Made by a program: the position numbers and the translations under genes. A stretch of DNA of 63,703 nt, the filler included, from Raillietiella orientalis (taxonomy: Eukaryota), in the NCBI GenBank assembly GCA_036172245.1. It is 4 parts of 4 records of this genome, joined end to end, with 100 filler letters (N's around TTAATTAATTAA, not from the genome) between each part and the next. Parts side by side here need not be neighbours in the genome. Positions count along the whole stretch, not along the records: positions 17,410 to 34,716 come from JAYWIR010000249.1; 3 more parts are not named here. One strand, given 5' to 3'. The notes under the pieces are model-generated. The model did no database searches. It was not told the DNA's origin and was given only the letters and a program-made list of their open reading frames with translations. Shown one piece after another: positions 12,001-59,782 of the stretch (position 1 is its first letter; the number at the start of each line of letters is the position of its first letter).

Positions 12001-15000
12001 TGAAATGTCGGACTCTTCTTGATGATCCTCTGAAACCAGGAAATTGGGAGGCTATTCGGCTCTCCATGACGGGAATTTTCCACTCACTGCAAATGGATGC
12101 TTCGTGAAGAGGCGCAAAAATGCAATGGTTAAATCTTCTGCTTTCGAGTTGATTACAAAACCTGAAAAGTGGCAAATTTGGACCAAAGAATGAATCAGAG
12201 CGAAGGAGAATATTGCCTTTCAAATTCCGGCATTGGTTACTATAAAAAAAACACAGAATGCAAAGTGCCACATCCTAATGAAATGTCGGACTCTTCTTGA
12301 TGATCCTCTGAAACCAGGAAATTGGGAGGCTCTTCGGCTCTCCATGACGGGAATTTGCCACTCACTGCAAATGGATGCTTCGTGAAGAGGCGCAAAAATG
12401 CAATGGTGAAATCTTGTGACTTGGAGATCATTACAAAAGCTGAAAAGTGGCAAATTTGGACCAAATAATGAATCAGAGCGAAGGAGAAGATTGCCTTTCA
12501 AATTCCGAAATTGGTTACCATAAAAACACCACAGAATGCAAAGTGCCACGCCCTAATGAAATGTGGGACTCTTCTTGATGATCCTCTGAAAGCAGGAAAT
12601 TGGGAGGCTCTTCGGCTCTCCATGACGGGAATTTGCCACTCACTGCAAATGGATGCTTCGTGAAGAGGCGCAAAAATGCAATGGTGAAATCTTGTGACTT
12701 GGAGATCATTACAAAACCTGAAGAGTGGCAAATTTGGACCAAATAATGAATCAGAGCGAAGGAGAAGATTGCCTTTCAAATTCCGACATTGGTTACCATA
12801 AAGAAAACACAGAATGCAAAGTGCCACATCATAATGAAATGTCGGACTCTTCTTGATGATCCTCTGAAACCAGGAAATTGGGAGTCTCTTCGGCTCTCCA
12901 TGACGGGAATTTTCCACTCACTGCAAATGGATGCTTCGTGAAAAGGCGCAAAAGTGCAATGGTGAAATCTTCTGCTTTCGAGTTGATTACAAAACCTGAT
13001 AAGTGGCAAATTTGGACCAAAGAATGAATCAGAGCGAAGGAGAAGATTGCCTTCCAAATTCCGGCATTGGTTACCATGAAAACAACACAGAATGCAAAGT
13101 GCCACTTCCTAATGAAATGTCGGACTCTTCTTGATGATCCTCTGAAACCAGGAAATTGGGAGTCTCTTCGGCTCTCCATGACGGGAATTTGCCACTCACT
13201 GCAAATGGATGCTTCGTGAAGAGGCGCAAAAATGCAATGGTGAAATCTTGTGACTTGGAGATCTTACAAAAGCTGAAAAGTGGCAAATTTGGACCAAATA
13301 ATGAATCAGAGCGAAGGAGAAGATTGCCTTTCAAATTCCGAAATTGGTTACCATGAAAACAACACAGAATGCAAAGTGCCACGCCCTAATGAAATGTCGG
13401 ACTGTTCTTGATGATCCTTTGAAACCAGGAAATTGGGAGGCTCTTCGGCTCTCCATGACGGGAATTTTCCACTCACTGCAAAAGGATGCTTCGTGAAGAG
13501 GCGCAAAAATGCAATGGTGAAATCTTGTGACTTCGAGTTCATTACAAAAGCTCAAAAGTGGCAAATTTGGACGAAATAATGAATAAGATCGATGGAGAAG
13601 ATTGCCTTTCAAATTCCGACATTGGTTACCATGAAAACAACACAGAATGCAAAGTGCCACGCCCTAATGAAATGTCGGACTGTTCTTGATGATCCTCTGA
13701 AACCAGGAAATTGGGAGGATCAGCGGCTCCCCATGACGGGAGTTTGCCACTCACTGCAAATGGATGCTTCGCAAAGAGGCGCAAAAGTGCAATGGTGAAA
13801 TCTTCTGCTTTCGAGTTGATTACAAAACCTGAAAAGTGGCAAATTTGGACCAAAGAATGAATCAGAGCGAAGGAGAAGATTGCCTTTCAAATTCCGACAT
13901 TGGTTACCATGAAAACAACACAGAATGCAAAGTGCCACATCCTAATGAAATGTCGGACTCTTCTTGATGATCCTCTGAAAGCAGGAAATTGGGAGGATCA
14001 GCGGCTCCCCATGACGGGAGTTTGCCACTCACTGCAAATGGATGCTTCGCAAAGAGGCGCAAAAGTGCAATGGTGAAATCTTCTGCTTTCGAGTTGATTA
14101 CAAAACCTGAAGAGTGGCAAATTTGGACCAAATAATGAATCAGAGCGAAGGAGAAGATTGCCTTTCAAATTCCGACATTGGTTACCATGAAAACAACACA
14201 GAATGCAAAGTGCCACTTCCTAATGAAATGTCGGACTGTTCTTGATGATCCTCTGAAACCAGGAAATTGGGAGGCTCTTCGGCTCTCCATGACGGGAATT
14301 TTCCACTCACTGCTAATGGATGCTTCGTGAAGAGGCGCAAAATTGCAATGGAGAAACCTTCTGCTTTCGAGTTGATTACAAAACCTGAAGAGTGGCAAAT
14401 TTGGACCAAATAATGAATCAGAGCGAAGGAGAAGATTGCCTTTCAAATTCTGACATTGGTTACCATGAAAACAACACAGAATGCAAAGTGCCACATCCTA
14501 ATGAAATGTCGGACTCTTCTTGATGATCCTCTGAAACCAGGAAATTGGGAGGCTCTTCGGCTCTCCATGACGGGAATTTTCCACTCACTGCAAATGGATG
14601 CTTCGTGAAGAGGCGCAAAAATGCAATGGTGAAATCTTCTGACTTCGAGATCATTACAAAACCTGAAAAGTGGCAAATTAGGACCAAATAATGAATAAGA
14701 GCGAAGGAGAAGATTGCCTTTCAAATTCCGACATTGGTTACCATAAAAAAAACACAGAATGCAAAGTGCCACGCCATAATGAAATGTCGGACTCTTCTTG
14801 ATGATCCTCTGAAACCAGGAAATTGGGAGGCTCTTCGGCTCTCCATGACGGGCATTTGCCACTCACTGCAAATGGATGCTTCGTGAAGAGGCGCAAAAGT
14901 GCAATGGAGAAACCTTCTGACTTCGAGTTTATTACAAAAGCTCAAAAGTGGAAAATTTGGACGAAATAATGAATAAGATCGAAGGAGAAGATTGCCTTTC

Positions 15001-16533
15001 GAATTCCGACATTGGTTACCATGAAAACAACACAGAATGCAAAGTGCCACGCCCTAATGAAATGTCGGACTGTTCTTGATGATCCTCTGAAACCAGGAAA
15101 TTGGGAGGATCAGCGGCTCCCCATGACGGGAGTTTGCCACTCACTGCAAATGGATGCTTCGCAAAGAGGCGCAAAAGTGCAATGGTGAAATCTTCTGGTT
15201 TCGAGTTGATTACAAAACCTGAAGAGTGGCAAATTTGGACCAAAGAATGAATCAGAGCGAAGGAGAAGATTGCCTTTCAAATTCCGACATTGGTTACCAT
15301 GAAAACAACACAGAATGCAAAGTGCCACGCCCTAATGAAATGTCGGACTGTTCTTGATGATCCTCTGAAACCAGGAAATTGGGAGGATCAGCGGCTCCCC
15401 ATGACGGGAGTTTGCCACTCACTGCAAATGGATGCTTCGCAAAGAGGCGCAAAAGTGCAATGGTGAAATCTTCTGGTTTCGAGTTGATTACAAAACCTGA
15501 AGAGTGGCAAATTTGGACCAAAGAATGAATCAGAGCGAAGGAGAAGATTGCCTTTCAAATTCCGACATTGGTTACCATGAAAACAACACAGAATGCAAAG
15601 TGCCACTTCCTAATGAAATGTCGGACTGTTCTTGATGATCCTCTGAAACCAGGAAATTGGGAGGCTCTTCGGCTCCCCATGACGGGAATTTTCCACTCAC
15701 TGCAAATGGATGCTTCGCAAAGAGGCGCAAAAGTGCAATGGAGAAACCTTCTGACTTCGAGTTCATTACAAAAGCTCAAAAGTGGCAAATTTGGACGAAA
15801 TAATGAATCAGAACGAAGGAGAAGATTGCCTTTCAAATTCCGACATTGGTTACCATAAAGAAAACACAGAATGCAAAGTGCCACATCATAATGAAATGTC
15901 GGACTCTTCTTGATGATCCTCTGAAACCAGGAAATTGGGAGGCTCTTCGGCTCTCCATGACGGGAATTTTCCACTCACTGCAAATGGATGCTTCGTGAAA
16001 AGGCGCAAAAGTGCAATGGTGAAATCTTCTGCTTTCGAGTTGATTACAAAACCTGAAGAGTGGCAAATTTGAACCAAAGAATGAATCAGAGCGAAGGAGA
16101 AGATTGCCTTTCAAATTCCGACATTGGTTACCATGAAAACAACACAGAATGCAAAGTGCCACGCCCTAATGAAATGTCGGACTGTTCTTGATGATCCTCT
16201 GAAACCAGGAAATTGGGAGGATCAGCGGCTCCCCATGACGGGAGTTTGCCACTCACTGCAAATGGATGCTTCGCAAAGAGGCGCAAAAGTGCAATGGTGA
16301 AATCTTCTGCTTTCAAGTTGATTACAAAGCCTGCAGAGTGGCAAATTTGGACCAAATAATGAATCAGAGCGAAGGAGAAGATTGCCTTGCAAATTCCGGC
16401 ATTGGTTACCATAAAAAAAACACAGAATGCAAAGTGCCACATCATAATGAAATGTCGGACTCTTCTTGATGATCCTCTGAAACTAGGAAATTGGGAGGCT
16501 CTTCGGCTCTCCATGACGGGAATTTTCCACTCA
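1..16533. repeat. 278-bp tandem satellite array, ~59.5 monomers, open at the window start
   Basis: Unit 'attggttaccatgaaaacaacacagaatgcaaagtgccac...gattgcctttcaaattccgac' recurs every 278 bp (1, 279, 557, 835...); two 277-bp monomers carry the same 1-bp deletion (~6592, ~13263); array ends mid-monomer at ...ttttccactca (16533). Confidence 0.99.
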
Positions 16534-17309: not shown

Positions 17310-17409
17310 NNNNNNNNNNNNNNNNNNNNNNNNNNNNNNNNNNNNNNNNNNNNTTAATTAATTAANNNNNNNNNNNNNNNNNNNNNNNNNNNNNNNNNNN
17401 NNNNNNNNN
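17310..17409. other. Assembly gap with artificial TTAATTAATTAA spacer
   Basis: 44 N + TTAATTAATTAA (stops in all six frames) + 44 N. Confidence 0.98.
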
Positions 17410-17990
17410 TCTACCTTAAGAGCGCTGCGCCGTCGCGTTCGGATGTGTTCCTGCGACACCCGAATTCTTTCCCCGTCCCAATTCTGCTCCTCCCTGTCCT
17501 CTCGTTGCAGCTGGCGACTGCAATAGGCATTCTACACCAACTGGCTCTGCACCTTTAATTCTTCCCACTCGGTCCTCTCCCACAAATGCTATTTTACCCG
17601 CAACTACTTCGTCTGCGATTGCTAAAAAAGTTCCCCCTAGGAACCTCACTCCTCCCCTGACTAATCTTCCCCTTCCACCCCTCGAAAATGCAGATATTAT
17701 TCTCACCCAGGATAATCATCTACATGTCAAAGTCCCGGTAAACAGGGCATTAGCTTGCATCATTCCCTCTTGTAGTTGGTTTACTAAAACGGAGGACCCT
17801 AAAAGAACTCTGAATTCTCTAAAGAGACATCTTAAAAGTCACCATAAACTCCCCTTCTATTCACATGACCTCATTTGCCGAAAATGTGTCTATCATTAGT
17901 TTACCTACTCAACACCATGCCTGCTTTAAAAATGATAGAAAGCCATCCCCTCCTCTAGTCAACCTCACCCCTTCTCGATTCCAATGCTCC
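17410..17990 (+). pseudogene. Zinc-finger region fragment of a family-A paralogue (NeSL/Utopia-like N-terminus)
   Basis: Translates to ACIIPSCSWFTKTEDPKRTLNSLKRHLKSHHKLPFYSHDLICRKC / SLPTQHHACFKNDRKPSPP..FQCSH, aligning to the same region of ORF 19143-20909; frameshift near 17887. Confidence 0.85.
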
Positions 17991-18600
17991 CATGTGTCTT
18001 GGTCCCGCGCCTCCCTCCCCCGCCGCCTCCCGTACACCCTGCGTACACACGGGCGGTCGAATCGAAGCGAAGACCGCGAAGACCGATCATCCCTCGGTTT
18101 GAACGCTTACGGCAGAATGCGCCAAACCACGCAAAGAGCAGCAATAATCCAGCTGATGAGCCACCAGGCTCATCAGGCATGAACAGAGTGCGGTCTGAAT
18201 GTTCGGCTCGTCCGAGAACACACGTGCGACCACGTAATAATCAGCAATGCCCACGTGGGACGAATGCCAGATTACGCTCGCACGAGAGCCCGACACGCGC
18301 CGATACGGTTCCAGAAACAGCTCTCCTGGCTCCCAGGGTGAGTTCTGAGCCTCCACCGATGGACAGCCAAAGCAACACGGCTCCCATTCTGACGATGGAG
18401 GAGGACGTTCTCATCGTTTTCCATCCAACGACCAGGAACATGGAATGTCCATTACCGCGATGCAGATGGGCCACCTCCAGGATGGAACCCAAGCGGTTGC
18501 TGGGGTCGCTTCGACGACACATACAAACCGCGCATCGGATACCGGTACGTGGCACCCACCTCCTCTGTCGCCGCTGTAACCAGCGCTTGGCCATACCTGT
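17991..18600 (+). pseudogene. Zinc-finger region fragment of a family-B paralogue
   Basis: PPPVHPAYTRAVE..RPIIPR and EEDVLIVFHP..MECPLPRCRW..LGSLRRHIQTAHRIPV..LLCRRCN align to ORF 23354-25651 (PPVHPAYVRVVE; MACPLPRCRW..LGSLRRHLRTAHWIPV..LVCSRCN). Confidence 0.85.
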
Positions 18601-19010
18601 ATGGTTCGAATTCCCCTCCTCCGTGCAAGATGGCCCATAGTGAGCTCCGATGAAAGGATTAACAGCACTAACTCCACCCTACGACCGGACATATTCCTTC
18701 AGAACTCTACAACCGCAGCAATTGTGGATATTGTGATCCCCTTTGAAAATAGGAAAATATCCTTTAACAAAGCGCGCCAAACCAAGATCACCAAATATTC
18801 TGATCTTGCGAACCAAGTACGTGAAAAAGGTCTGGCCACGATCAACCAGGCAATCGTAGTAGGCGCGCTGGGTTCTTGGGATCCCGAAAACGACGCGGTC
18901 GTAAGACTATTAGGTGTTCCCAAAAACACCATTATATCCTTAGCCAACCAAATGTGTCGCGAAATGATCAAGTTCTCGCGCGAGATTTATATTTCCCATA
19001 TCGCAACGCC
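18601..19010 (+). pseudogene. Restriction-like endonuclease (RLE) domain, NeSL/Utopia type, lacking the upstream CCHC knuckle
   Basis: LRPDIF..IVDIVIPFENR..FNKARQTKITKY..VVGALGSWDPEND..SREIYISHI: PD..D core, K..KY, GALGSW and terminal SRxIY..H motifs typical of NeSL/Utopia RLE domains. Confidence 0.88.
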
Positions 19011-19142
19011 AAACGAAGCCAACCTCACTACCCCATCTGAGTTCCAATCTGCCAGGATCCTACTTCTAATAATCTCAGTCCTGAACTTCCCACTTTTTAG
19101 AAGGATTCCCCCGAAATACTACTACAACTCCACGAAAATCCG

Positions 19143-20909
19143 TTGCTGCCACTTCCTCGGTCCCCGCTCAAGACATCCCCAGAACTGCTGGAAGCCATCG
19201 CGACCTTTCAGAGGAACAAAGATGCGTTTCAACCGCTCCCTGATGAACCTGTTAAGTTGATTCCCCGGGCTGACAGTGAGGAGCCGCATTTAGCCGCTCG
19301 TCCTCCGTCTGCAAATAGTTTTCCCTCGTCTAGTGCTCCTTCTTCGGTGGCTGTATCCTATGCTGATATATTGAAGAAGACCCCTGTTGTGAAGATTTCC
19401 AAGCTTCCAACATCTCCCTCTTTGTTTCGTTCCCTCGATGTTCGTCGTCATGACTCCCCCATCAAGCCCATCCTTTCCATGATCCGAAAGGTCTCATCTA
19501 GTGTAGATCTCTCTTGTGCGATGAAAAAGATTTCTTTGTCTTTCACAAAAAAGAGCTCCCAGAACCCTAAAATTGTTTCCCCAACTTCGTCAATCTCCTC
19601 ATCATCGTTGCCGACGCCCGTGCAATACAGCGTCGTTTCTCAACCCACTAGTCCTGCAATCCCGCTGGTGTCTTTGTCGCCCTTAGGAGAGTCTTCTGAA
19701 CATTTCACATCGCCTCCTCAGATTATTTGTTGGAGATCTGCAATACGAGCTGGCAAAAGAGCGCACTCTACCACTCCCATGCCTTGTAATAACGTTTCTA
19801 CAGTCTTTCTCCGCCCAAATTCCGATCCTCCCTGTCCTCTGGATTATCGACATATCCCCACACCAATAACTAATAGACTTACGTCTGGGTCACAAATTTA
19901 TCCTTTGAGAACTATGAAATATCCTTTTCGTTCATACTCTGTTTCTCCAGCGCGATCAAAGGACTTCCCTACCCAACAATGTCCATCTACTACCAATCTA
20001 AACTCCCTCACAGCATCTTTTACACCTGTACGCCCTCCTTTGCCTATGGCACCTCGTCACCCCATCGTTATATGTCCACAACCAGTTACAATCCCCCGTA
20101 CTGGAAACCCAACACCACCCCTGATAACCTTACCCATTCCCCCACTGCAGAATGAGGATATCCTACTTACTAGGAGTAACCACTCATCTGTCAAATATCC
20201 GATAAGCAAGGCACTTCGTTGCATAATCCCCTCTTGTGACTGGGCCACTAAAACAATGGAACCCAGAAGAACACTAGCCTCCTTAAAGCGACATTTAAAG
20301 ACACACCATAAACTCCCTTTTTATACCCACGACCTCGTGTGTAGGAAATGTCACTCCAACATTACCTTACCCACCCAACACCATGCATGCTTTCGAAACG
20401 ATCATAAACCATCTCCCCCCAAAGTTAACTGCTCATCAACAGAATATAAATGTTCCCATCAGAATTGTTCATGTTCCTTTACCTCATCCAAAGGTCTTCA
20501 AAATCATATAAGATGGCATAAAAGAGTGCTAGGTAGAGCCAAATTAAGAAACCCTCGGCAGGCTAAAGATACAACGCCAATCTCATTATCTAACAAGTTT
20601 TCCTTGCTCCAAACGAGTGAATTATCCATAAATGAACCTGTTTCTGTTCAAAATCTTCCCCCTTCCACTATAAACCACTCCTGCATCCAAATGCCTCAAG
20701 ATATCGGCAACCCTCAGCCATTAAATATTCCTAATCCTCCACCTCCTGCTGAGACCATGCCCCATCACAGGACACTTTGTCGTGGTCCACCACCATCCCT
20801 ATTGGATCCGGTTTCATCCACATTAATATGGACGAGTTCTGCCACTCCTACAAATGAATCCTGGCAAGTCACACTCGACTCCCTTTCTGAGATCATCTCA
20901 CTTATCTAA
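19143..20909 (+). CDS. Pro/Ser-rich protein with triple zinc-finger module (N-terminal part of element A ORF)
   Basis: 588-codon ORF; CIIPSC..LKRHLKTHH, CRKC..HHAC, YKCSHQNCSCSFTSSKGLQNHIRWH; the frame continues past TAA 20907-20909 into 20961-21650. Confidence 0.75.
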   Translation: MLPLPRSPLKTSPELLEAIATFQRNKDAFQPLPDEPVKLIPRADSEEPHLAARPPSANSFPSSSAPSSVAVSYADILKKTPVVKISKLPTSPSLFRSLDVRRHDSPIKPILSMIRKVSSSVDLSCAMKKISLSFTKKSSQNPKIVSPTSSISSSSLPTPVQYSVVSQPTSPAIPLVSLSPLGESSEHFTSPPQIICWRSAIRAGKRAHSTTPMPCNNVSTVFLRPNSDPPCPLDYRHIPTPITNRLTSGSQIYPLRTMKYPFRSYSVSPARSKDFPTQQCPSTTNLNSLTASFTPVRPPLPMAPRHPIVICPQPVTIPRTGNPTPPLITLPIPPLQNEDILLTRSNHSSVKYPISKALRCIIPSCDWATKTMEPRRTLASLKRHLKTHHKLPFYTHDLVCRKCHSNITLPTQHHACFRNDHKPSPPKVNCSSTEYKCSHQNCSCSFTSSKGLQNHIRWHKRVLGRAKLRNPRQAKDTTPISLSNKFSLLQTSELSINEPVSVQNLPPSTINHSCIQMPQDIGNPQPLNIPNPPPPAETMPHHRTLCRGPPPSLLDPVSSTLIWTSSATPTNESWQVTLDSLSEIISLI

Positions 20910-20960
20910 AATAAATATAACCTACGACCCTACTCCTTTAAACCTCGAAATCGATCCAAA

Positions 20961-21650
20961 ATGACGCCTAGTGCAAAAATTCTCCAAAATTTATACCACA
21001 CCAAGTTCTACAGTAAAAACATCAACTTTATTAAAGAATGCTTCCGCCTCACACGAAGCAGGATACACCCCAATCCTATGGCCAACTTGCAACTACGCAG
21101 CTGGCAAATGGATATACTCAAACTCATCAGGACTACACCAGATGCCAGAAAGATTTACTGGTACTTCGACCCAGAAGGAGGCCATGGCAAAACAACATTT
21201 GCCAAATTCCTCTACTTGAAAAAGGGCGCCATTTACATGCACTCATGTAAAAAGGCAGATGCAGCCCACATCTACAACGGCGAACACGTCATCGTTGTGG
21301 ATCTGACCAGAGACAATCAAGAAATAGTACAATACGGCTTCATCGAAACCATGAAAAATGGCATCATGTTCGCATCCAAGTATCAGGGATCCATTAAATA
21401 CTTTCAACCACCCCACATCATAGTGTTCTCCAATTGGGAACCAAATTACGAAAAAATGAGTATCGACAGATGGAGAGTTACAGATATCTTCCTCAATTCT
21501 CAAAGCAAATTGTGTCCATGGATGTTGGATGATGCTGGAGCCACCTTGCCTTGGGCCTGCCCTTCAGGCCCTAGTACAGGGCAGTCCCGCGACTCGCCAG
21601 ACTCCAGTGAATCCACTTTGTCACCCCCTTCCCAAGATATTGAGAAATAA
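20961..21650 (+). CDS. SF3 helicase / P-loop domain resembling the C-terminal half of nanovirus/alphasatellite-like CRESS Rep; no HUH domain
   Basis: WQ..PDARKIYWYFDPEGGHGKTT (Walker A), VIVVDLTR (Walker B), YGFIETMKNG..SKY, HIIVFSN (motif C), MSIDRW (Arg finger), all intact. Confidence 0.88.
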   Translation: MTPSAKILQNLYHTKFYSKNINFIKECFRLTRSRIHPNPMANLQLRSWQMDILKLIRTTPDARKIYWYFDPEGGHGKTTFAKFLYLKKGAIYMHSCKKADAAHIYNGEHVIVVDLTRDNQEIVQYGFIETMKNGIMFASKYQGSIKYFQPPHIIVFSNWEPNYEKMSIDRWRVTDIFLNSQSKLCPWMLDDAGATLPWACPSGPSTGQSRDSPDSSESTLSPPSQDIEK

Positions 21651-21783
21651 AATGAATTCACAATGCAAGTTTTCATGTTTTTCACATATACAAGGAAGGG
21701 TCTCTTAAATGCTTAAATTCCACATAGACAGTGCGAGTCAGTCTAATCTTCCCAGTCCCGTGAATTGCTCCTCCCCCCATTGA

Positions 21784-21918
21784 GGCAATACGCCCCGAAT
21801 CGTGTACTCAGCGATTCGAGCAGCTCGAGACATCTACTTTGCCCATATCACCACCCATCCTTCCTCCGGAGCCGAACCTCCGGTGCAGGAGCTGACACCA
21901 GCCGCCCACCCATCCTAG
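21784..21918 (+). pseudogene. C-terminal remnant of RLE domain
   Basis: Frame not in the ORF track reads PRIVYSAIRAARDIYFAHIT...* and matches EMIKFSREIYISHIAT at the end of the 18601 RLE. Confidence 0.6.
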
Positions 21919-22087
21919 TGCAGCGCGGCTTTAATGGACCTCATCGAAATCTGATCGCTCAGTGTTGCGTCCCTCTTGTGAACTCTGCGTCCTCGATGAA
22001 CACTTGCGTGTTCTTATGTTCAATTCCCCTCTTAGGACTTACAAAGTGCAAAGACTTTGTAACAAGCGATAAACGTGGACTCAATAA

Positions 22088-22495
22088 AGTTACTCCCGCC
22101 GTTTACTCGCATTTCGTTGAATCTCTTCACTTTGACACTCAAAGCACTCGGCAGAAATCACATCGCGTCAACACCGGCAACGGCTATCGCGATGCTTTGT
22201 TTTCATTAGGCAGTCGGATTCCCCTTGTCCGTGCCAGTTCCGAGTCGATCGCTGCATACTGCCCGAAACGCTGCGGGACCACCGAGCGACCACCGACCGG
22301 AAATTCGGGCGAAGCCATTCCACGACTTGGAATACCGTGCAAGACTGCGAGGTGAGACCATCATCACTACGGAGGGCGCGCCATCAGAGTGCGCCACGGG
22401 CCCTGAGCGGAACCGCCGGCACGTGCGCGCCCCGACCGAGCGGAGAAACGCCAATCTGCCGATAGCCTGTTCTTTCGTGCCGCTCTGCCCCAGCT
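22088..22495 (-). rRNA. Degenerate 28S rRNA fragment upstream of the R2 site (probable D8 expansion segment plus conserved core)
   Basis: Reverse complement reads GAACTGGCACGGACAAGGGGAATCCGACTG...GTTGACGCGATGTGATTTCTGCC...AAACGGCGGGAGTAACT, with substitutions at conserved positions. The GC-rich 22250-22495 part is inferred to be expansion segment. Confidence 0.9.
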
Positions 22496-22769
22496 GACGC
22501 AGAAGCACTGCCTCATGTTCCCACTTCCCTTTCCCAAATCAGCAGCATCTCTCATAACAATCGTAAAACGACTCCACCAATATCTTCAGCGTGAATACAC
22601 CTAGTCCTTCAAGTGGCACTACTTTAAACACTCCACTCCATTTTTCAATCGATAATTTCCACCAAGGAATTCACCCACTCTCCACTTCCGAACATCTCTG
22701 AACGATTTCGTGCCCTAATTTCCAAACCTAAAAAGAAAGATGAAGAATAGAAATGCTGAAGTCGAAATT

Positions 22770-22885
22770 GATCTCCCTCGCTGATTTTTTCAAGCCCGTT
22801 CCCTTGGCTGTGGTTTCGGTAGATAGTAGGTAGGGACAGTAGGAATCTCGTTAATGCATTCATGCGCGTCACTACTTAGACGACG
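22770..22885 (-). rRNA. Degenerate 28S rRNA fragment downstream of the R2 site
   Basis: Reverse complement reads CGTCGTCTAAGTAGTGACGCGCATGAATGCATTAACGAGATTCCTACTGTCCCTACCTACTATCTACCGAAACCACAGCCAAGGGAACGGGCTTG, the conserved LSU core. Confidence 0.92.
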
Positions 22886-23353
22886 GACGTGTCTGAGTGG
22901 AGCTCCGGCGCGTCATGAAGTTTGACTTTGGCTTGTGAAAAACTTACCTTGATGACCCCTATTGAATTTTCGTTCTGTGCATCCCCTGCCCACAGTGAAC
23001 CTTATTACCAACTTTTTTGATTGTGTGGTAATTTTTGTGGCTACTGTAGACATTCTCGTCTCCCGCCTGTGTGCTGCCATGGCTTAGACCAGAGAGAACA
23101 CTTGTCGGGAAGGTAAGAGGGATCGACAGTCCGAATTGACATTCTGGGCCCCCATCACGCCCTTGTTAAATACTTTTAACCATTTTTGTGTGGATCTGAA
23201 CCACTGTGGTCGTTAAGCGTGATCGACCACATCGGTTCCACAAACTCCTTTGTTCCCTCGCTCTGCGCGGGAGAAGTTAGCGTCCCCTCTGAGCGATCTG
23301 ATTGGTCGACTCAGCGAACTCGCTTTCCCATTGGTTCCGCCGCATAGTTCCAC

Positions 23354-25679
23354 GTGACTAAGCGAAGCGTCAGGCGCCATCTTGCAACGATGCCTGCGTC
23401 GCATTGTACGCTCTCCGTGGAGCGCGAACTTTGGATTTCCCACGGAACTGACTCTCCTGTGCCTCGTCCTCTCCCAGACTGTGTGTTCGCCACAACGGCA
23501 AATGACATTAAGAACCGTGTACGAAACCTTAAGGCACACTTGAGCCGTATACATGGCGTACACATCCCGGCAGTTCGTTTTTTCTGCCTACAATGCCACA
23601 AGAGTGAGAATACAAACATGCTGCTCTCTCAGCATCGTTGTCTCAACCCTCCTGTGGAACTCCCTGAGATGCTACTTGCTCTCAAATACAAATGCCCGAA
23701 ATGTAATGCTTCCTTTGGGCGCCCATCCTTGCGAAAGGCGCATCATAAATGGAAGCATTTACACATGGACAGAGCCCTTGGTGCGGCAAACGAAGGCCGC
23801 GAGGACCTTGGAGATGAAATTGATTTTCCCAACTCTTGGGATGAGGCAGATTTCCCCGACTCCTCATGCAGCTCCATGGACACTTCACTATTGCACCAGA
23901 AGTGGTTCAACGTGCCAACAACTGCCAGTCACAGTACTCCTCACCAGAACGAGGATCGCCCTGGATCTGCAAAGTGCAAGGGACGTAATGAAACCAGTGA
24001 ACTGATGAACGCTACACCCTCCATCCTTGACATGGAAGTACCCATGGCATCGGCGATGGAAGAGCGTCGCCTTTCTCTGCCACCCCCTCTCCTTGGACCG
24101 CCTGCCTCGGTTCCGATGGAGGGGACAAGAGACTTCCACCAGGCTCTTCAGCCACGAGTTCTCTTGACTCGACTTTCCCAGGCTGAGCTGGACTACTTCG
24201 CCCGCCCTCCACAGCGCAATGTGGTATCTAGAGTGCCCACCCCAGTGCAGGAGTCGCGGCTGTCTGGTCACTCCACCCTGACTCTTGCCTCTCCTTCTCA
24301 AACTGGGGCCGAGCTGCTTGAGCAAGTCTCCCCGGGAAGCGAGCACATCGTACTGATACCTCGCTCTCCCCCACCTGCTCCGCCTGTGCATCCAGCGTAC
24401 GTGCGCGTGGTCGAGAGAAAAAGACCGAGACGCCGCCAGCAGCGCCCAGTTATCCCTCGCCTCCAACGGCAATTACGAATCACGCAGGCTAGCAATGGCC
24501 GAATAAACTTGGCGGATAACGATCGGAGACCCAATTGCGTCCCATCTCCAGTGCCTCATGTGGCCGAACCGTTGGCTCCGGCTCGCCCCCAGGGAACTGT
24601 CACTGACCTGGCACCCTCAGTGCCATCGGCCTTAACTGAGGACGACGTCCTCCTAGTGTATCTGCCATTAAACACCACCATGGCTTGTCCACTGCCGCGC
24701 TGCAGGTGGCATACCAGCACGCAACAGGCGAAATCCACCTTGGGATCGCTGCGCCGCCACCTGCGCACTGCACACTGGATACCGGTTAACAGAGCCCATC
24801 TAGTGTGTAGCCGTTGCAATGCCAACGTGCAGATACCTGTCTGCAGGCATCCCTGTGGCTCGCGGGTGATCCGATTCGAGGAGCCAGCGCCACTCGCCTG
24901 CCCTGAGCAAAACTGCGATAAACATTTCTTTAATCGCAAAGCTCTTGCGAATCATGCTCGGTGGCACGACTCGCTAGGCAGAGCAGAGGAGCGGCGGTAC
25001 ACGCGTGGTCTTAGAGGCCAGAGAACTCTTCCAGTCCCGCCTCGAGCTCGCCAACATACCACCGTTAGCCCACAGCCAACCAGCCAATCCTCCCAGCGGG
25101 TAATTGAACATGTTCCCCAGACGAGTGCACCCTCCATCCCATTGCCTGATCCCTCGCGCAATCAGGAATGGCAAATAGTGACAAGTCGGCGGAAACGTGC
25201 TCCTAATGCCCTGGGGAATCTGGCCCGTGGAGCTAGGCATCCGCCCAGACGCATTACCTCCTCGAGTGAGCCTGAATCTCCGCGCCTCCCTACCCCTGTC
25301 CCTGGCTCACGATTCGCCGTCCTGGACGAAGAGAACATTGGTGAACTGACAGTTTCACCCGACAGCATTGCTGCCCCTGCCCGTTCCTCAACGTCCCCCG
25401 TCCGGAGACGCGCCCGTGACAACCAGCGTGAAAATCAGAGAGCGCTTGGACCCCCTTGGAGAGACTGCAAGGCTTCTTCAGGACATTGGGACACAACCAG
25501 CAACAACAGACAATTGGGGCCTTGCGATACGAGCGCTGAACACTTCGTACAGTGCAATTCGGAACGGCCTGGGCTTACGCCCTTTCACTGTTCCCATGAA
25601 CAATGTGCGACCAATGAGCCTGTCTCCACGCACTCTACAGCGGTTATATAACCAAAACCCTCGACCGTCGTTTAGGTAA
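23354..25679 (+). pseudogene. Element B N-terminal protein with two triple zinc-finger modules; frameshift near 25450
   Basis: Module 1: PLPDC..LKAHLSRIH, CLQC..HRC, CPKCNASF..HHKWKH. Module 2: CPLPRC..LRRHLRTAH, CSRC..HPC, CPEQNCDKHFFNRKALANHARWH. Continues in the 25368-25679 frame (DNWGLAIRAL..LRPF..TLQRLYNQNPR). Confidence 0.8.
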
Positions 25680-25692
25680 CAAACAATTATCG

Positions 25693-26239
25693 GCAAATCC
25701 TCTCGCCAACCTACGTCTCAGAGAGTGGCAACTGGAACTCTTCGACGTCATGAAAAAACCAGCAAACCAGAGAACCATATTCTTATTTTACGACACATTT
25801 GGCAACGCAGGAAAAACTACGATGGTCAAAGATCTAGACCGCAAAAGAGGAACCATCTACGTGCATTTCTGCCGAAAAGCTGACGCAGCCCATATCTACA
25901 ATGGGGAATATCGTTGTCACGTGACACGCGTGTCTTCACACGTGACAACCAAGAATACTACAATATGACTTTGTAGAATCCCTCAAAAATGGGATACTCG
26001 ACTCCAAATATCAAGGATCGATGAAGTACTTTGACGTTCGCCACATACTCATATTTGCGAACTGGGAGCCCGACAACCCAAAAACGAGTGCTGACAGGTG
26101 GGTTATAAAAAATATTGGCAAGATACTACTTGAACAATTAATGAAGAAGGATCCATTCTCCCATGGGTTTCAAGCCCGTGACCCGCCTGACTCCTCTTTG
26201 AGCACGCTTTCACCAACAAACAGCCAAATAAGTCCATAA
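25693..26239 (+). pseudogene. SF3 helicase domain (CRESS Rep-like), frameshifted
   Basis: NPLANLRLREWQ..RTIFLFYDTFGNAGKTT..KADAAHIYNGE / KYQGSMKYF..HILIFANWEP..SADRW..RDPPDSSLSTLSP, collinear with 20961-21650. Confidence 0.85.
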
Positions 26240-26327
26240 AGACATTTTTTATTACTAGTATGTTGCTAAACCTCTGTTCTGACTCAACTCCAAATAGAAC
26301 ATTTGGGTTATTCTAAATATACGGTAG

Positions 26328-26759
26328 CCTTTTCTTAAAGTAGACTCTGTATTTTCCCTCCTCCGTACCCGGTGGCCCGATGCTTCGGTTTACCGTCGAG
26401 TTGACCTAGATGATTCCACCCTCCGACCAGACATTTTCCTTCAGAACCCCTCAACTGCTGTGATCCTTCAAGTAGTAATTGCTTTTGAAAATCGACGTGC
26501 TTATTTTCTCCGTGCTCGTCAAACGAAAATTCAGGAATACGCCGATCTTGCCAATAGTCTACGTGAACAAGGCTTCACCACCATCAATCAAGCTGTTGTG
26601 GTTAAAGCACTTGGATCGTGGGACCCGACAATGCTAGTTGTCCTGAAGCTAATCGGCATTCCGATACATGCCATCAAATCTCTTACCAGACATACGTGCA
26701 GTGAAATGAGAAAATTTACACTTGACACTTACATCTCCCACATAGCTTCTAATGATTGA
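26328..26759 (+). pseudogene. RLE domain of element B, second catalytic Asp replaced by Gln
   Basis: LLRTRWP..STLRPDIFLQN..VILQVVIAFENR..ARQTKIQEY..ALGSWDP..DTYISHI, homologous to 18601-19010. Confidence 0.85.
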
Positions 26760-29700
26760 ACCAATGCCCCAACGGAAACAAAGGCTCAAACTGCACAAGA
26801 TTTCTTTTCGCAGCATGAAAATCCTTCTACGCATAAACACCAACCTCCCGTCGTCAAGGGCATCGGCTTCAATGTACTCCCCACGCCGTCTGTAAACACT
26901 CAAATAGTTCAAATTAAGCTACGACAGATGGACGATAATCGAATTCGATATCCACTCCGACAGCAGAAAGACCAGCTGGACCATGGAGTCGACCGATCCA
27001 AAAGAACAGGATTCCCGTTAAAGATGTGCAGGAGATAAGATTGTACGAGTAGATAAGGGGATGGAAATAGCGCATCAACTGGGGCATTACTGCAGTTCCA
27101 GAAAGATACTGGAACTAGTAGCAATGACAACCACTGCCCTCATACTCAAACGGAACGATAGGCCTACGTCCTATGGATTGAATGGACTATCTCCCAGGAC
27201 GCAATGATGCCCTTCTAGTCCCCACCAGCAGGTACACACACAGACATGCAGTTGCCTACCAGGCATTCAAGGGACTCTTGCTCAAGCTGCAAATTGCCCG
27301 CACATCGAGAACATGACCTTTCAGGGAGAATCATATGCCGAAGTCATACCGAGACCAGAGCCACATCACATCGGGGCAAGGTACATAAATGGGATTCCGA
27401 AGGCACCATTCAACGATGCAGATGCCGACACAACTGTAGAGAGACTTGGTTCTTTCATGACCAATGTCTACCCTCGATCTAGTTGTGTTTATCCCCGCCA
27501 CCATGTCTCGGGATGTTGTTGAGTCTAGGAAGGACTATGTACCTGAATGGGACATGTTCTGTTCTAATGTGCCCAACAAGGTGTCAATTGTTGCGCCGAA
27601 AGATCAGCCTGTCGGAGTTACCAGCGAGATCACAGCTGATTTACGAACCAACCTTCATAGGGCAGCCACAAGGGTCGAGTCCATTAGGCCTACAGTTTTC
27701 GTCTCTAGCAGCCCAGAAAAGCATCCCAGCGAGATAATCCTCGCGACGGACCATGACATATAAACACTCAGATGACTGTCACGCCTCATAATTCATTGTG
27801 ATAACCGGTTGTGATTTGCCATTGTTGATCTCACTTATTCTGCTGAAGATAAAAGTTATTTTCATACACGGAGTAAGGTTCGTTTCAATATTTGTACAGA
27901 GTGACGAGATTTTTAGATGGAAGCACTAGCAATTTAAGATGTAATAAGCATGCGCAAATGCCATTTAAAATAACAACTCAAATTAGGCTCAAACACTGTT
28001 GCAATTTCCTTCACGCACATGAAAGAGCCATCGAACCAGATATCCTCCAAAGAATCAATCCCAGGAAATTTTTCCTTTCTTTTCTGCTACCTTCTCAAAT
28101 TTGCTTTTGTTTTGTAATCCCATCTGCCTCACGGGAGCCTTGTAATAGTCTCACGCACCTCTAAGTCTGGTTGTTTTCCCTAGGAACAGGATACGCACGA
28201 AGAAAAGAATTTGCAGTTCAGTAAGACTCGTAGGCAATATATTTCACAACTTCTGATTACAAGCATACTGATTAGCAAAAAAAAAAAAAAAGAAAAACAA
28301 ATTTTGGCTTTGCTGTATGGAAATTTATGTACAGTCAACTTTCAGTGCAACATCTGTCACAAACCTCAAAAAAGGAAAAAGTATAAATCAAGATTCACAA
28401 CACATCATGTTGAAGAGAATGCACTTCAAGACCAAAAGACTTTCATTTAGCTTCAATTTATAAACATTCAACAACTCCAGACTTTCTATCATCATGATTG
28501 TCATGAGAATAATGTAAACAAGTATCAGGAATGAACAAAAAATTGCATTTTGGAATTTTTTCATGCAACAATATCACATTCCACTTCGGTGCATCACATT
28601 CCACTCCAAACGAATAACGCAGCAGAAATGCCCAGACAGAAACATGCAATCCTGGAAAACTCTGTTACTACTCTCTTATTTTCAAACTATCAAGAGAAAA
28701 GTGGAAACAACCAAATAGTAGCAATGCAATTATCAAAGAAATCATCAAAATCATAACCCATACGAAAATTCCAGTGTTATCACTTTCAATAAGGAACATT
28801 GAACTTTCAAACTGAAAATCCAGTCTCCATATCACCAATTCCAAATTAGAATTTCCAAGAACTTTCTTGGCTTTGGCATCTACAAAAAATTGCAGTCACT
28901 TTTAATATTCATCCACTTGCTGCATTTCAGATTAACTCAAGACGCATACCAGATTGACAAAAGTAAATCACAAAAAATCACCACTCTTTTTCACATTTTG
29001 ATCACAGAACACATTGGTTCCCAGTCTGTACAGAGTTAAATAAGCAATTCAGTTTCCCATTGTGTTAACCTTATTGTGTTTTCCTCTTATCTATTTGTAT
29101 TTGCTCTTTAAATACTATCCGTAACCCTACTTTCAACTTTGCAGGGCCTTCCTATTCCAGAAAGAACAAAGTCTCCCACATAAGAGAATTTCCCACTTTA
29201 CCAAATCTTTGGGGAGTTCCATCTTCATTGATTTGCTATTTTATTTCCTTTCTATATTTGATTTTATCAAAATCCACTGAAACATTTTGGGAGCCACAAA
29301 ATGGAAAACCAGGAAAATAACTATTAACCATTCACTACTGTCTCATGAAAATACACAAACATTTTGCGTTGCACTGAATTTTGCATGCATTTTTTGTCAC
29401 CACATTCTACCTAATTTTCCAAATACATATTTCAAATATAATCTAGTAACACGTGATTCCTTTAAAAACTAAGGCTAGAAGACTGCCACGTGGCAAAAAA
29501 ATGAAATAAACTGTAGAATCTGAAGTGAAAATACTCTGCAACAAATTGTTCGAATCCCATTATCTATGCACTTCATGAACGACGATAAACTCTGAAGCAC
29601 CTTGCAGAACACCCCATAAGCTTTGGTATTTCCAGACAATAATAAAACAATGATGTTCAGATACATGATAAACTAATTGCACAAGCTCGGAGGAAAGGAT

Positions 29701-32700
29701 TACCTCTTCCTCGCATCTCATCCAGAAATGTGTTAGAAGTGACAGAATCCGTGGCATGAAACTCCTAGACTGAAACACCCTATCCTGGGAGCACAGTCTT
29801 TCAAGAGATGCTAATCAAACGCACCAAATCAAGTAATATGCTTGATAACCAAACCTCAAACAGGGCATCTTCTTTAGCCCTTTAGACGTACAAGAATACC
29901 CTTCTGTAGTTCCTTTATCAAATGCTAATGGGATCTCTACAAGAACATCCCGACAACTTCACATTCGTCATCTGCCAGAGAGCAAGCATGCCACTTGCTA
30001 CAAATCAACAAATTGCACCAACACCCACTTCAGCAAGAACTACTCCTCTTCCCACAAGCAGATCATCTCCTTACATCACAATGCAATCCACAGGTGATGA
30101 TTCTCATCTCAAAATTTCCTCCTCTATAACTGAACAGCAAGATTCCATTTCAAACCAGTTTCAAGGGAAAATTCTGCGATTTGCAATAACAACCGAAAGA
30201 TGTGCAAACATGCCAGTTAGCCACAGATACATTGAACGATGTCATCCATACCATTCACACACACTTTCGAACCATGGGTGCAAGCCCAACCTTGGATGGA
30301 CTTACCCAGGTGATTGGCACTCCCGAACATGCCCACCCCTTATCTGGGATTTTTTCATTTTGGGATGCAACCACTATGACAGGGTGTCATGAAAAACATT
30401 GCCAATTCCAAGGTCTTAGCATGTGCAGCTGATCTCGTGATTATAACCAGAAATCCAAACAATCTGCAATCGGCCTTAAACCTGACTGGGGCACTCACAA
30501 AATGCCTTGGTGTACTGCCAAACACAAATTAGTGTAACTCACTTCACTGCCAAGCGAAAACACCGACATATCTGGGAATAACTTTCTTCTCCATTTTCAA
30601 GAGCCTCAAGTGTTGCATTCGACTACCACACAATTTGAAAAACCCTACGATTTGAAAAAGTCAACTCTACCCTCAGCATGCAATGACATTACTGACAGCC
30701 ATCCAGACTTCCCTCTGGCTTAATGTACATTACAAAACAGTTCAGCAACATGCACAAGCATCCCATGCACATCTCATCAGCACAGCAGGCCCTGCTGTAA
30801 CAAAGCATGGCATGAACAAAAACGTTGCAATCCTCATCACAACTGCTGTTCACAGCAGTGCAAGTCCAACAGTCCCACAACCTTTCCTGCTAAAACTCAT
30901 AACATCCCAAGTCTTGCTGAATCATCTCATCACAACAATCAGAACATCAACACACCCTTTTCCCATTCATGAGCTTTCCTGTCAGCAATCACCATCACAG
31001 TAAACGTGCAAAGTGGAACGGGACAAGGATGCAGCTTTCAAATTTTTAGGAGGGCGCCCTGACTTTGCAACTTCACGGCCTTCTCGATTTTCAAAGACTG
31101 AAAAAAAAAAACAGCAGCATTGCAAGTGAACTCCTTTCAACTCCTTTCTTTGCTCCCCATCACTTCAAATGAAATAACAAGCATTCCAGCACTTTTCTTT
31201 TTCCCGATTCTTGCAGCCATTTTCAAAAGAGCAAAAATTACTTCCTTTACCGTAAAGTGCTCACTGCTAACGGCACCTTCCCTTTCCCATCGATCACATA
31301 CTCCTCGAATGCCTACATGCCTTGCAACCCGACCATTCCACCATCCACACTTTGAGCCACAGCATTTCTTCCAAACCGAAACTCAACCGTGCAGCGCCAC
31401 GCCCACTTCCACCGGAAAGCGCAGCCGCCCTCTACCGCTCTTCCCGCTCTTCCGCCTCCTCCCGTGCGCTTCAAGATGTGCATTTCGAGGTGGAACAGAC
31501 AGCGCGGAGTTCGATCTCTCCAAATCTTTTGGCAACAACAGCTTCCCTTCAAATCGCACCTTTCCACTCTTCACCACTCTTCAATGATCCTTTCGCAATG
31601 ATTTCCCTACGTCTTCTCCACTGAAGACATTCCTCGGTTCTTCCACCCATGTCGGTGTTCTTGTGCAATCTGAGGTCTCCTCCGAATGCACAAGAGGCTT
31701 CTCACGCTCTCACACTTCTCACGTCACTTTTATGATTTGTTTGGGAAGTGTTCCATCAGCGGGCGCGCTTTTTCCAAAGGTGCTGCACATGTACAATGAA
31801 ATGAATCGAGTTTTAGATTCTCTTATACACAGAAAAGCTGCTTTCCATCGTAAGGACGAAACCAAATCACGCTTGGAAAGGGAGAACCCTTTCCATGCTT
31901 GGCTTTTCGAGATTGAAAATTCGTACAGAGATTCTTTCACGAAGCTTCCAAGGATATGAATTTCAATTCAGAACGGTGGTGGAGAGAGAACAGCAATCGG
32001 GCACGTCGGAACGAATATCTCACTTGTCCTGATGAAAGCAACACCAGGAATGAGCTTGAAACAAGTTTGTGCTTGTGATTAAATTAGCATTAAATTCTAC
32101 GGATATAAGAATGAAGGAAGGAATCTTTGCAAAAAGAGATCATTCATTGGAACTGCCTATCTTGCCTCCAGGACATCAGCCTTCCTGACTTGCTGAAAGG
32201 ACGAAGGGAAGTGCAAGCTGAACTGCACAGATGCGGGAAATTTTTCCTTAGACTGCAACAGTAAAATCTGATGTCCAAGAATATGTGTTTGCTCCAAGGC
32301 TCAATGCTTTTCCTGCCTGAACGTACTTTTGCGATCTTTGATGCTCCTCACCATGGCCAAGATGATAGTGTTCTCGCTCACAGAATCACACAGAGGACCC
32401 TGCAGCCTGCGGCTTTCATCTTCTGCCGTTTCTCTTTCCGTGGAATCGAGAACACTGGTCACAAAAAATGGCATTCATGTAGCAACCTCTCCTTCTCATC
32501 ATCACACAAATTTTTTCGAGAGTGATGACTTTATTGTTGGTTTCTCACCGCTGACAATATTTTGCTTCCTAAATGCTGTGCAGCTCCTTTCACAGGCAAG
32601 AAATTCATATTCTTTATTTTGCAAATCCCATCGGAACGATGCTCTCCATTTGCAAGAGCATTGGTTTCTCCAGAAAATTGGATGGATCGCCCTTGGATGG

Positions 32701-34716: not shown

Positions 34717-34816
34717 NNNNNNNNNNNNNNNNNNNNNNNNNNNNNNNNNNNNNNNNNNNNTTAATTAATTAANNNNNNNNNNNNNNNNNNNNNNNNNNNN
34801 NNNNNNNNNNNNNNNN
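34717..34816. other. Assembly gap with TTAATTAATTAA spacer
   Basis: N run with spacer at 34761-34772. Confidence 0.98.
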
Positions 34817-47900: not shown

Positions 47901-47995
47901 GGAGAGCAGGCGGTCCAGGGGGAGCTGCTCGCAGAACTCCCGGACCGATTCCTTAAAAAGGTCCCAGTCTTGGAGATTCCAGAGCGTCGAGCGGA
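44972..47995 (-). mobile_element. Tx1-like family E, 5'-truncated (RT, C-terminus, 3' UTR)
   Basis: IAPGEDGLPAEFY, NNWRPITIVN, DLHKAFD, GIRQGDSLSP, YADD, CVRCGERESLYHLIVDC across ORFs 46983-47711, 46263-46937, 45639-46229 and 45177-45626. Confidence 0.92.
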
Positions 47996-59769: not shown

Positions 59770-59782
59770 GTCTTCCCCTTTT

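Follow-up and report, generated by a model that had tools for sequence, protein, structure and literature searches.

LINE-type retrotransposons (long interspersed nuclear elements) are defined by their reverse transcriptase (RT). Here, a locus of Raillietiella orientalis is described in which LINE-derived elements carry a virus-type helicase at the place of the RT. The closest described systems are the non-LTR (without long terminal repeats) retrotransposons with a restriction-like endonuclease (RLE), i.e., R2, NeSL, and Utopia. In Utopia, one to three N-terminal zinc fingers are followed by the RT and then by one zinc finger and the RLE, as given in PMC4640811. R2 forms internally deleted non-autonomous copies, i.e., SIDEs (short internally deleted elements), and template jumps of its RT onto foreign RNAs occur in vivo, according to PMC3414825. 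On the viral side, avipoxviruses hold captured helicase-only Rep (replication-associated protein) genes, which are kept under purifying selection (PMC10193959).

The window, i.e., the whole stretch of DNA analysed, has 63,703 nucleotides from the assembly GCA_036172245.1. It is composed of four contigs, and the three joins between them are identical (N44-TTAATTAATTAA-N44 at 17310-17409, 34717-34816, and 51972-52071). The GC content is approximately 0.43 in the first two contigs and 0.55-0.60 in the last two. Among sequencing runs, one DNA run contained a share of 0.13 of the words sampled, and no RNA run was listed as containing them. All findings come from one 17.3-kb contig (17410-34716, JAYWIR010000249.1), in which tblastx self-comparison recognized three elements on the same (+) strand, named 0, A, and B.

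In comparison with the RLE-type retrotransposons, the zinc-finger module, the QxLY motif, and the PD-(D/E)xK core of these elements are homologous and stand in the same order. However, RT, thumb, linker, and CCHC knuckle are missing, and a viral helicase was found there instead. The first-pass annotation of this DNA had proposed the order of zinc fingers, QxLY, Rep-type superfamily 3 (SF3) helicase in the RT slot, and RLE or its remnant. Homology of each part bears this out, and the order is common to two copies, A and B, which are approximately 50% diverged in protein. Only these two had been described as the set. They do share the order, but a third copy without the helicase was found (element 0), and the helicase of B can be read only with at least three frame changes. 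We consider the elements to be non-autonomous derivatives of an RLE-LINE which captured a Rep helicase and were moved by the RT of a partner, with a probability of roughly 0.5.

Like the R2 SIDEs, the elements would be an RLE-LINE minus the internal RT-coding part and presumably relied on the RT of a partner. R2 SIDEs are short and non-coding, whereas the elements here have 2.5-3.4 kb, long open reading frames (ORFs) under purifying selection, and a foreign viral domain. Clades of RLE-LINEs (NeSL/Utopia versus R2, R4, CRE, and HERO) rest on RT phylogeny, and therefore no clade was assigned to elements without RT. In the literature searched, subscription journals and Repbase Reports being outside the scope, no LINE-type element carrying an SF3 helicase was found to be described; the first-pass annotation likewise knew of no description.

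Retrotransposon-derived parts

In the PDB, three solved R2 proteins matched the RLE core of element 0 (18616-19056) with their C-terminal endonuclease (E 6.5e-8 to 2e-6), and the PD, D, E, and K residues of element 0 align with those of the R2 RLE. An RLE profile of 229 positions, CCHC knuckle included, matched element 0 from position 103 to 226 (E 2e-37) and element B from position 107 (E 8e-27), so that the RLE expected around 18601-19010 was confirmed by both searches. The truncation point is common to the two elements. Because the matches begin downstream of the CCHC and RHD consensus, the CCHC knuckle and the part upstream are gone from 0 and B. An RLE domain or a remnant of it had been claimed behind the helicases, and both forms were found; however, A has only a remnant, B has Q in place of the second catalytic D (ILQVV), and the cores lack the CCHC knuckle.

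Fifteen longer relatives of the RLE showed 34-47% identity, and the RT family PF00078 was present in 11 of them. The named ones are from ants and ticks. Two RT- and RLE-bearing relatives, P0174 and P0176, matched the elements at both ends, i.e., their C-termini matched the RLE cores at 18616-19056 and 26358-26798, and their N-termini matched the zinc-finger regions at 20133-20552 (A), 24638-25369 (B), and 18392-18595 (0) in tblastn. The region of B is 29% identical to residues 23-270 of P0176 (E approximately 1e-12); E-values of these zinc-finger matches hold for small search spaces. P0176 itself aligns to the solved R2 proteins from residue 365 (E 1e-63), three residues ahead of its QRLY at 368.

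A full-length profile of 1179 positions was built from nine full-length RLE relatives. It matched A at positions 12-89 and 1136-1158, B at positions 7-166 and 1040-1154, and the RLE of element 0 at positions 1036-1157. The second match of A is the RLE remnant, which showed E 0.0045 to this profile and E 0.012 to the RLE profile. No match to positions from approximately 345 to 1035 was found in A or B, i.e., approximately 690 positions comprising RT, thumb, linker, and CCHC knuckle. The coding N- and C-terminal parts of the parent remain in the diverged copies, and the RT is gone.

By Pfam scan, neither the RT family PF00078 nor the HUH nuclease family PF02407 was found in any of the 76 ORFs of at least 75 amino acids (aa) on the contig. 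The absence of RT and HUH motifs, which had been stated for 17410-27800, was therefore upheld. Outside that range, a decayed RT fragment of a related RLE-LINE was recognized at 30350-30604. It is 31% identical to residues 787-866 of P0174 (tblastn) and corresponds to profile positions 621-659. The presence of a related RT, though decayed, on the same contig and strand agrees with movement by a partner.

Helicase domain

The domain downstream of QxLY in A and B is a Rep-type SF3 helicase because of its Pfam score, its matches to Reps, its invariant residues, and its fold. The helicase of A scored 23.6 bits against RNA_helicase PF00910 (cut-off 21.5). In a phmmer search of 1.84 billion representative proteins, it matched 7495 proteins at E<=1e-3, of which 4468 reached E<=1e-10 and 51 reached E<=1e-30. 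The top matches are typically approximately 300 aa long and are aligned over their C-terminal half with 36-50% identity. To HUH-bearing Reps, the identity is 42-47% (E approximately 1e-35). The claimed homology to Reps from CRESS DNA viruses (circular, Rep-encoding, single-stranded) thus holds, and the possibility that the domain is not an SF3 Rep homologue was dismissed. Of 27 top matches scanned, 23 showed the HUH family Viral_Rep PF02407 (E<=0.001, some under the cut-off of Pfam itself), one showed PF23343 only, and three showed no HUH family (P0015, P0016, and P0018). P0015, the best match of the helicase (E 3e-63), is a protein of 354 aa with two tandem Rep-type helicase domains and a linker, without HUH.

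In the IMG/VR collection, 327 of 353 matches of a pattern scan were helicase relatives. The best 80 of these 327 lie on contigs of 2-5 kb with 33-45% identity, and none of the 80 contigs has an RLE.

In an alignment of 26 rows, helicase A holds all 19 nearly invariant columns, including W65 Q66, G90/G93/K94, R134, N175, and D186 R187 W188. This set covers WQ, the G-x2-GK of Walker A, the FD..R region of Walker B, the asparagine of motif C, and S-DRW; an SF3 helicase is marked by the two Walker motifs (A and B), motif C, and an arginine finger. The AlphaFold2 model of helicase A has pLDDT above 90 across roughly residues 60-190. A fold search with the model detected generic AAA+/SF3 similarity (E1, RuvB, MCM, D5/E5, and SaPI5 primase-helicase; best Z 10.6), which is not Rep-specific. 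No Rep chain was among the fold matches listed, by which a Rep fold is not excluded. In the PDB sequence search with helicase A, no significant match was found, and the best Rep chain had E 0.58.

In a tree of 163 domains, in which B was entered with X at its break, the helicases of A and B are sisters (support 0.99) and are nested among Reps from CRESS-DNA viruses. They have a single origin. The HUH half is absent; three full Reps align anywhere in the window only from residue 121, 162, or 188 onward, leaving their HUH part unmatched. A CRESS Rep is encoded by a small circular genome, either free or integrated, but the helicase here sits between LINE-derived zinc fingers and an RLE.

As in CRESS Reps and their captured copies, e.g., the helicase-only apvRep-5 of avipoxviruses, all conserved motifs of the SF3 helicase are present. 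Unlike the CRESS Rep, there is no HUH, and the helicase stands in frame behind retrotransposon zinc fingers. The recipient of the capture also differs, being a LINE derivative here, a virus in the avipoxvirus case, and a plain host locus in others. Helitrons and Replitrons are likewise eukaryotic mobile elements built on Rep-related proteins, as described in PMC10288648. However, these depend on an HUH nuclease, and the helicase of Helitrons is SF1B and Replitrons have none, whereas the elements here have an SF3 helicase and no HUH.

A group of eleven proteins (P0001-P0011) also has a C2H2-like finger and then a Rep-type helicase without HUH, with 27-34% identity to helicase A. They differ in finger and linker, have no LINE parts, and are not the nearest helicase relatives. 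These proteins have 222-330 aa (most approximately 300), and most consist of one C2H2-like finger, a coiled-coil-like stretch, and the SF3 helicase. Their contigs are 0.9-3.6 kb long (most approximately 1.2 kb), and Pfam names nothing significant in the seven scanned. In these proteins, the Rep helicase may have been reused once more, independently.

Structure of the three copies

The features of the three elements and of the RT fragment are listed in Table 1. Element A extends from 19101 to approximately 21867 and element B from 23348 to 26759, whereas element 0 (17410-19056) joins its zinc finger directly to the RLE, with neither helicase nor RT between.

Table 1. Positions of the parts of elements 0, A, and B and of the related RT fragment in the window
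Feature	Position	Strand	Remarks
Element 0, N-terminal part	17410-18601	+	5' side cut by contig edge
Element 0, zinc-finger module 1	17642-18005	+	67% aa identity to the module of A
Element 0, zinc-finger module 2	18377-18601	+	55% identity to module 2 of B; Pro-rich stretch between modules
Element 0, RLE-core ORF	18580-19260	+	226 codons; PD...D...E...K complete
Element A, zinc-finger ORF	19101-20909	+	602 codons; stop TAA 20907-20909; module 20133-20552
Element A, SF3 helicase ORF	20910-21650	+	246 codons; same frame as zinc-finger ORF upstream; ends with Ser/Pro tail and TAA
Element A, QxLY motif ILQNLYH	20979-20999	+	LQNLY itself 20982-20996
Element A, Walker A GGHGKT	21177-21194	+	followed by Walker B VVDLTRD, motif C FSN, and DRW; WQ upstream
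Element A, RLE remnant IRAARDIYFAHI	21799-21867	+	approximately last 23 residues; rest of RLE deleted
Element B, zinc-finger ORF	23348-25651	+	767 codons; two zinc-finger modules
Element B, pre-RT motif LQRLYNQNPRPSFR	25635-25676	+	contains LQRLYNQNPR; frame differs from zinc-finger ORF
Element B, SF3 helicase	25669-26239	+	Walker A GNAGKT; motif C FAN, DRW, conserved Ser/Pro tail, then TAA
Element B, RLE-core ORF	26328-26759	+	143 codons; homology 26358-26798; 54% identity to that of element 0
Decayed RT fragment of related RLE-LINE	30350-30604	+	KVLACAAD replaces YADD; 3.6 kb downstream of B

In element A, the two ORFs of the same frame are parted by a single TAA, after which the frame reopens for the QxLY motif and the helicase; the ORF map is in accord with what had been noted for this stop. 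An alternative genetic code was considered for the in-frame TAA and was ruled out, as the helicase ORFs of both A and B are themselves closed by TAA, with more stops beyond. Element B is more broken. Its QRLY, the two halves of its helicase, and its RLE lie in differing frames, and several frameshifts interrupt its Walker B region. The last approximately 90 codons of its zinc-finger ORF are probably read in the wrong frame. In both A and B, a Ser/Pro tail follows the helicase, and their stop positions coincide.

The zinc fingers are arranged as two tandem three-finger modules each in B (23348-23780 and 24617-24994) and in element 0 (17642-18005 and 18377-18601), and as one module in A. The tandem modules of B and 0 are parted by a conserved Pro-rich stretch (PPPxPPVHPAY...).

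Since RT is absent inside the elements and DNA-binding, nuclease, and helicase domains were retained and selected as a coherent DNA-handling set, an autonomous RT-independent element was also considered. In such an element, the fingers would pick the site, the RLE would nick it, the SF3 helicase would unwind the DNA, and host polymerases would copy it. The structure of the copies makes this very improbable, the least probable of the explanations given here. Nuclease and helicase are intact together in no copy, and the RLE, without its CCHC knuckle, lies in another frame behind a stop which is conserved between A and B. Neither terminal repeats nor hairpins were found to bound the elements, and there is no HUH or other strand-transfer activity. 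We know of no precedent for an element of this kind.

5' junction of the helicase

The motif Q.LYR.NRR was found upstream of the RT in 10 of 11 RT-bearing relatives, and in P0176 it reads IQRLYRKNRR at residue 368. By hhalign, the pre-RT motif was aligned to B over 16 columns (E 0.006) and to A over 12 columns (E 0.12). In A, the 34 residues after QxLY align to the Rep linker just ahead of WQ (E 3e-4). As the QxLY match is followed by the Rep-linker alignment, the 5' junction would lie within approximately 15 codons past QxLY, although this position is weakly placed.

Divergence and selection

The zinc-finger ORFs of 602 and 767 codons exceed the longest ORFs in 300 mononucleotide shuffles each, i.e., 297 and 257 codons, and their length is therefore not due to chance. 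Selection was estimated by pairwise Nei-Gojobori comparison (NG86) on segments picked by protein similarity, by which pN/pS is biased downward. The helicases of A and B (134 codons) showed pS 0.79 and pN 0.29, with a bootstrap pN/pS of 0.29-0.48 and identities of 0.63/0.76/0.43 at codon positions 1/2/3. A similar pattern was observed for the RLE of 0 and B (146 codons; pS 0.81, pN 0.30; 0.61/0.77/0.36) and for the zinc fingers of 0 and B (115 codons; pS 0.79, pN 0.32; 0.63/0.69/0.34). For module 1 of element 0 and the zinc fingers of A (121 codons), dN/dS was 0.10 and the identities were 0.73/0.77/0.51. Overall, third positions are 0.34-0.51 identical and second positions 0.69-0.77.

Synonymous sites are saturated, while the proteins are still approximately 50% identical. 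Zinc fingers, helicase, and RLE core therefore diverged under purifying selection at the protein level. The codon-position pattern and the long open frames agree with the pN/pS signal. Because pS is saturated and pN is low between the helicases of A and B, and the RLE of 0 and B shows a like pattern, the chimera as such evolved under protein-level selection. The sister relation of the two helicases, together with their common tail and stop position, indicates that A and B diverged after the helicase was captured. The first-pass annotation had called the chimera old and once-selected and had proposed dN/dS of the two helicases as a check; the sister relation, the pN/pS range, and the codon positions all agree with it.

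A functionless one-off chimera was also considered. An RT-deleted LINE copy would have taken up an endogenous Rep fragment and been duplicated locally, and the selection signal would be an artefact or would have gathered earlier, in the lineages of the autonomous LINE and of the virus, with the captures occurring separately afterwards. Indeed, no copy is intact, the source is a single contig, the segments for pN/pS were picked by protein similarity, and element 0 shows that large internal deletions happen among these elements. However, separate captures do not suit helicases which are mutually closest among 163 domains, and the shared tail and stop position place the divergence after the capture. 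Third positions are near random, whereas the identity at second positions is 0.76. ORFs of 602 and 246 codons with one stop would not have been spared by neutral decay to 61% DNA identity, and 0 and B have the RLE truncation point in common. The selection signal and the common junctions are difficult to reconcile with a functionless one-off chimera, and we regard it as rather unlikely.

Origin and movement of the elements

The favoured explanation, i.e., a non-autonomous RLE-LINE derivative, can be outlined as follows. The family would derive from an RLE-type non-LTR retrotransposon, of which three parts were kept: the zinc fingers at the N-terminus, the QxLY motif ahead of the RT, and, from the endonuclease at the C-terminus, the catalytic core. 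The whole block of RT, thumb, linker, and CCHC knuckle would have been lost, and the linker and SF3 helicase half of a CRESS Rep, without HUH, would have come in its place. Either a template jump of the parental RT to a Rep transcript or a recombination event may have brought about the capture. Unable to copy themselves, the elements would spread as RNA with the help of a related autonomous element, whose RT would carry out target-primed reverse transcription, as for the R2 SIDEs. The zinc-finger-helicase protein may act at the target DNA of its element, where the fingers would bind and the ring ATPase would open the DNA. Such an action would account for the retained coding capacity. All three copies are presumably dead or crippled by now. 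The non-autonomous retroelement is favoured over a DNA-based element on parsimony only.

Several points weigh against this explanation. Non-autonomous LINE derivatives normally lose their coding capacity, so lasting selection on three domains fits it poorly, and the model needs a presumed benefit of the protein. The intact full set was present in none of the three copies, and an intact helicase and an intact RLE never occur together. The 5' junction remains a weakly placed one (hhalign E 0.12, 0.006, and 3e-4). The 3' flanks of the copies have no detectable mutual DNA similarity, and no 3' tail, target-site duplication, or target sequence was recognized. Rfam gave no match at gathering score over the whole window, i.e., no 5' ribozyme and no RNA-gene target (snRNA or rRNA) was recognized in it. 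The pN/pS segments were picked with the bias mentioned above, and the whole evidence is from one contig of 17 kb. No second example of the architecture was found in the protein, metagenome, and viral collections. Finally, the three copies stand head to tail within 10 kb, which would also suit a tandem gene cluster.

Such a cluster of host genes is the alternative that follows from the last point. One ancient LINE-Rep chimera would have been domesticated and tandemly amplified, so that the copies are diverged paralogues or pseudogenes and were not transposed. The role could be, for instance, a zinc-finger-targeted ATPase or an antiviral decoy of Rep. Besides the common strand and close spacing, the strong and lasting purifying selection is in line with it, and so is the lack of hallmarks of retrotransposition in the Rfam scan and in the 3' flank comparison. 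Captured Rep genes kept by a new owner under selection also have a precedent (PMC10193959). On the contrary, all three copies are broken, and the region is otherwise repeat debris without an intact host gene. The RLE core was selected alongside the helicase, which would be needless for a decoy. The clustering in one orientation does not need tandem duplication, as RLE-LINEs are typically target-specific and would cluster in this way (PMC4640811). On balance, domesticated host genes are an unlikely explanation. Because selection lasted on three domains of an element which does not copy itself, the host gene cluster and, less likely, the RT-independent element stay alive beside the non-autonomous LINE derivative.

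Bolder readings may be imagined. The elements would be a new class of eukaryotic mobile element made from site-choosing retrotransposon fingers, a nicking RLE, and a viral ring helicase, which moves without an RT of its own and recruits host DNA synthesis by nicking and unwinding at a chosen site. Or else they would depend strictly on an RT-bearing LINE as their second partner, and the helicase protein would take an active, selected part in integration. Both are doubtful and are put forward as speculation.

If the replacement of the RT by a viral helicase under selection is true, it has a big meaning for mobile elements. A retroelement would have persisted in a new way, and genes of single-stranded DNA viruses would have a new route to enter eukaryotic genomes and survive there. 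Moreover, modules would have been exchanged between mobile elements of two unrelated classes. Judged from the sequence, DNA-binding fingers which look programmable, a ring ATPase, and a nicking nuclease would be fused here by nature. Even if it is only a single decayed locus, it is an instructive case of an endogenous viral element captured inside a LINE.

Search for further members

Helicase A and the RLE, each used as a single-protein query, detected no relatives among the metagenome and viral contigs. The alignment of the A and B helicases gave 274 pattern matches in metagenome contigs, none of which was a relative. In viral contigs, the same alignment detected 15 loci, all on CRESS-type contigs of 2-3.4 kb. 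The stretch of A from zinc finger to helicase, with the stop read as X, was compared with proteins of 466-1486 aa, and none of 4315 candidates matched at E<=0.001.

Other features of the window

Other retroelement ORFs were found on the GC-rich contigs, at 35242-36612 (-), 40468-42990 (+), 46983-48056 (-), 49105-50157 (+), and 59657-62452 (+). Four of them scored 67-111 bits for RVT_1, and ORF 46983-48056 scored 28.1 bits (cut-off 29.6). With the RLE-LINE relatives, these ORFs share only approximately 25% identity. An Exo_endo_phos nuclease is also encoded in ORF 59657-62452, which is therefore an ordinary LINE of the APE (apurinic endonuclease-like) type. In the first part of the window (1-16533), on a separate contig, a 278-bp satellite is repeated in 59.5 tandem copies with 93% matches.

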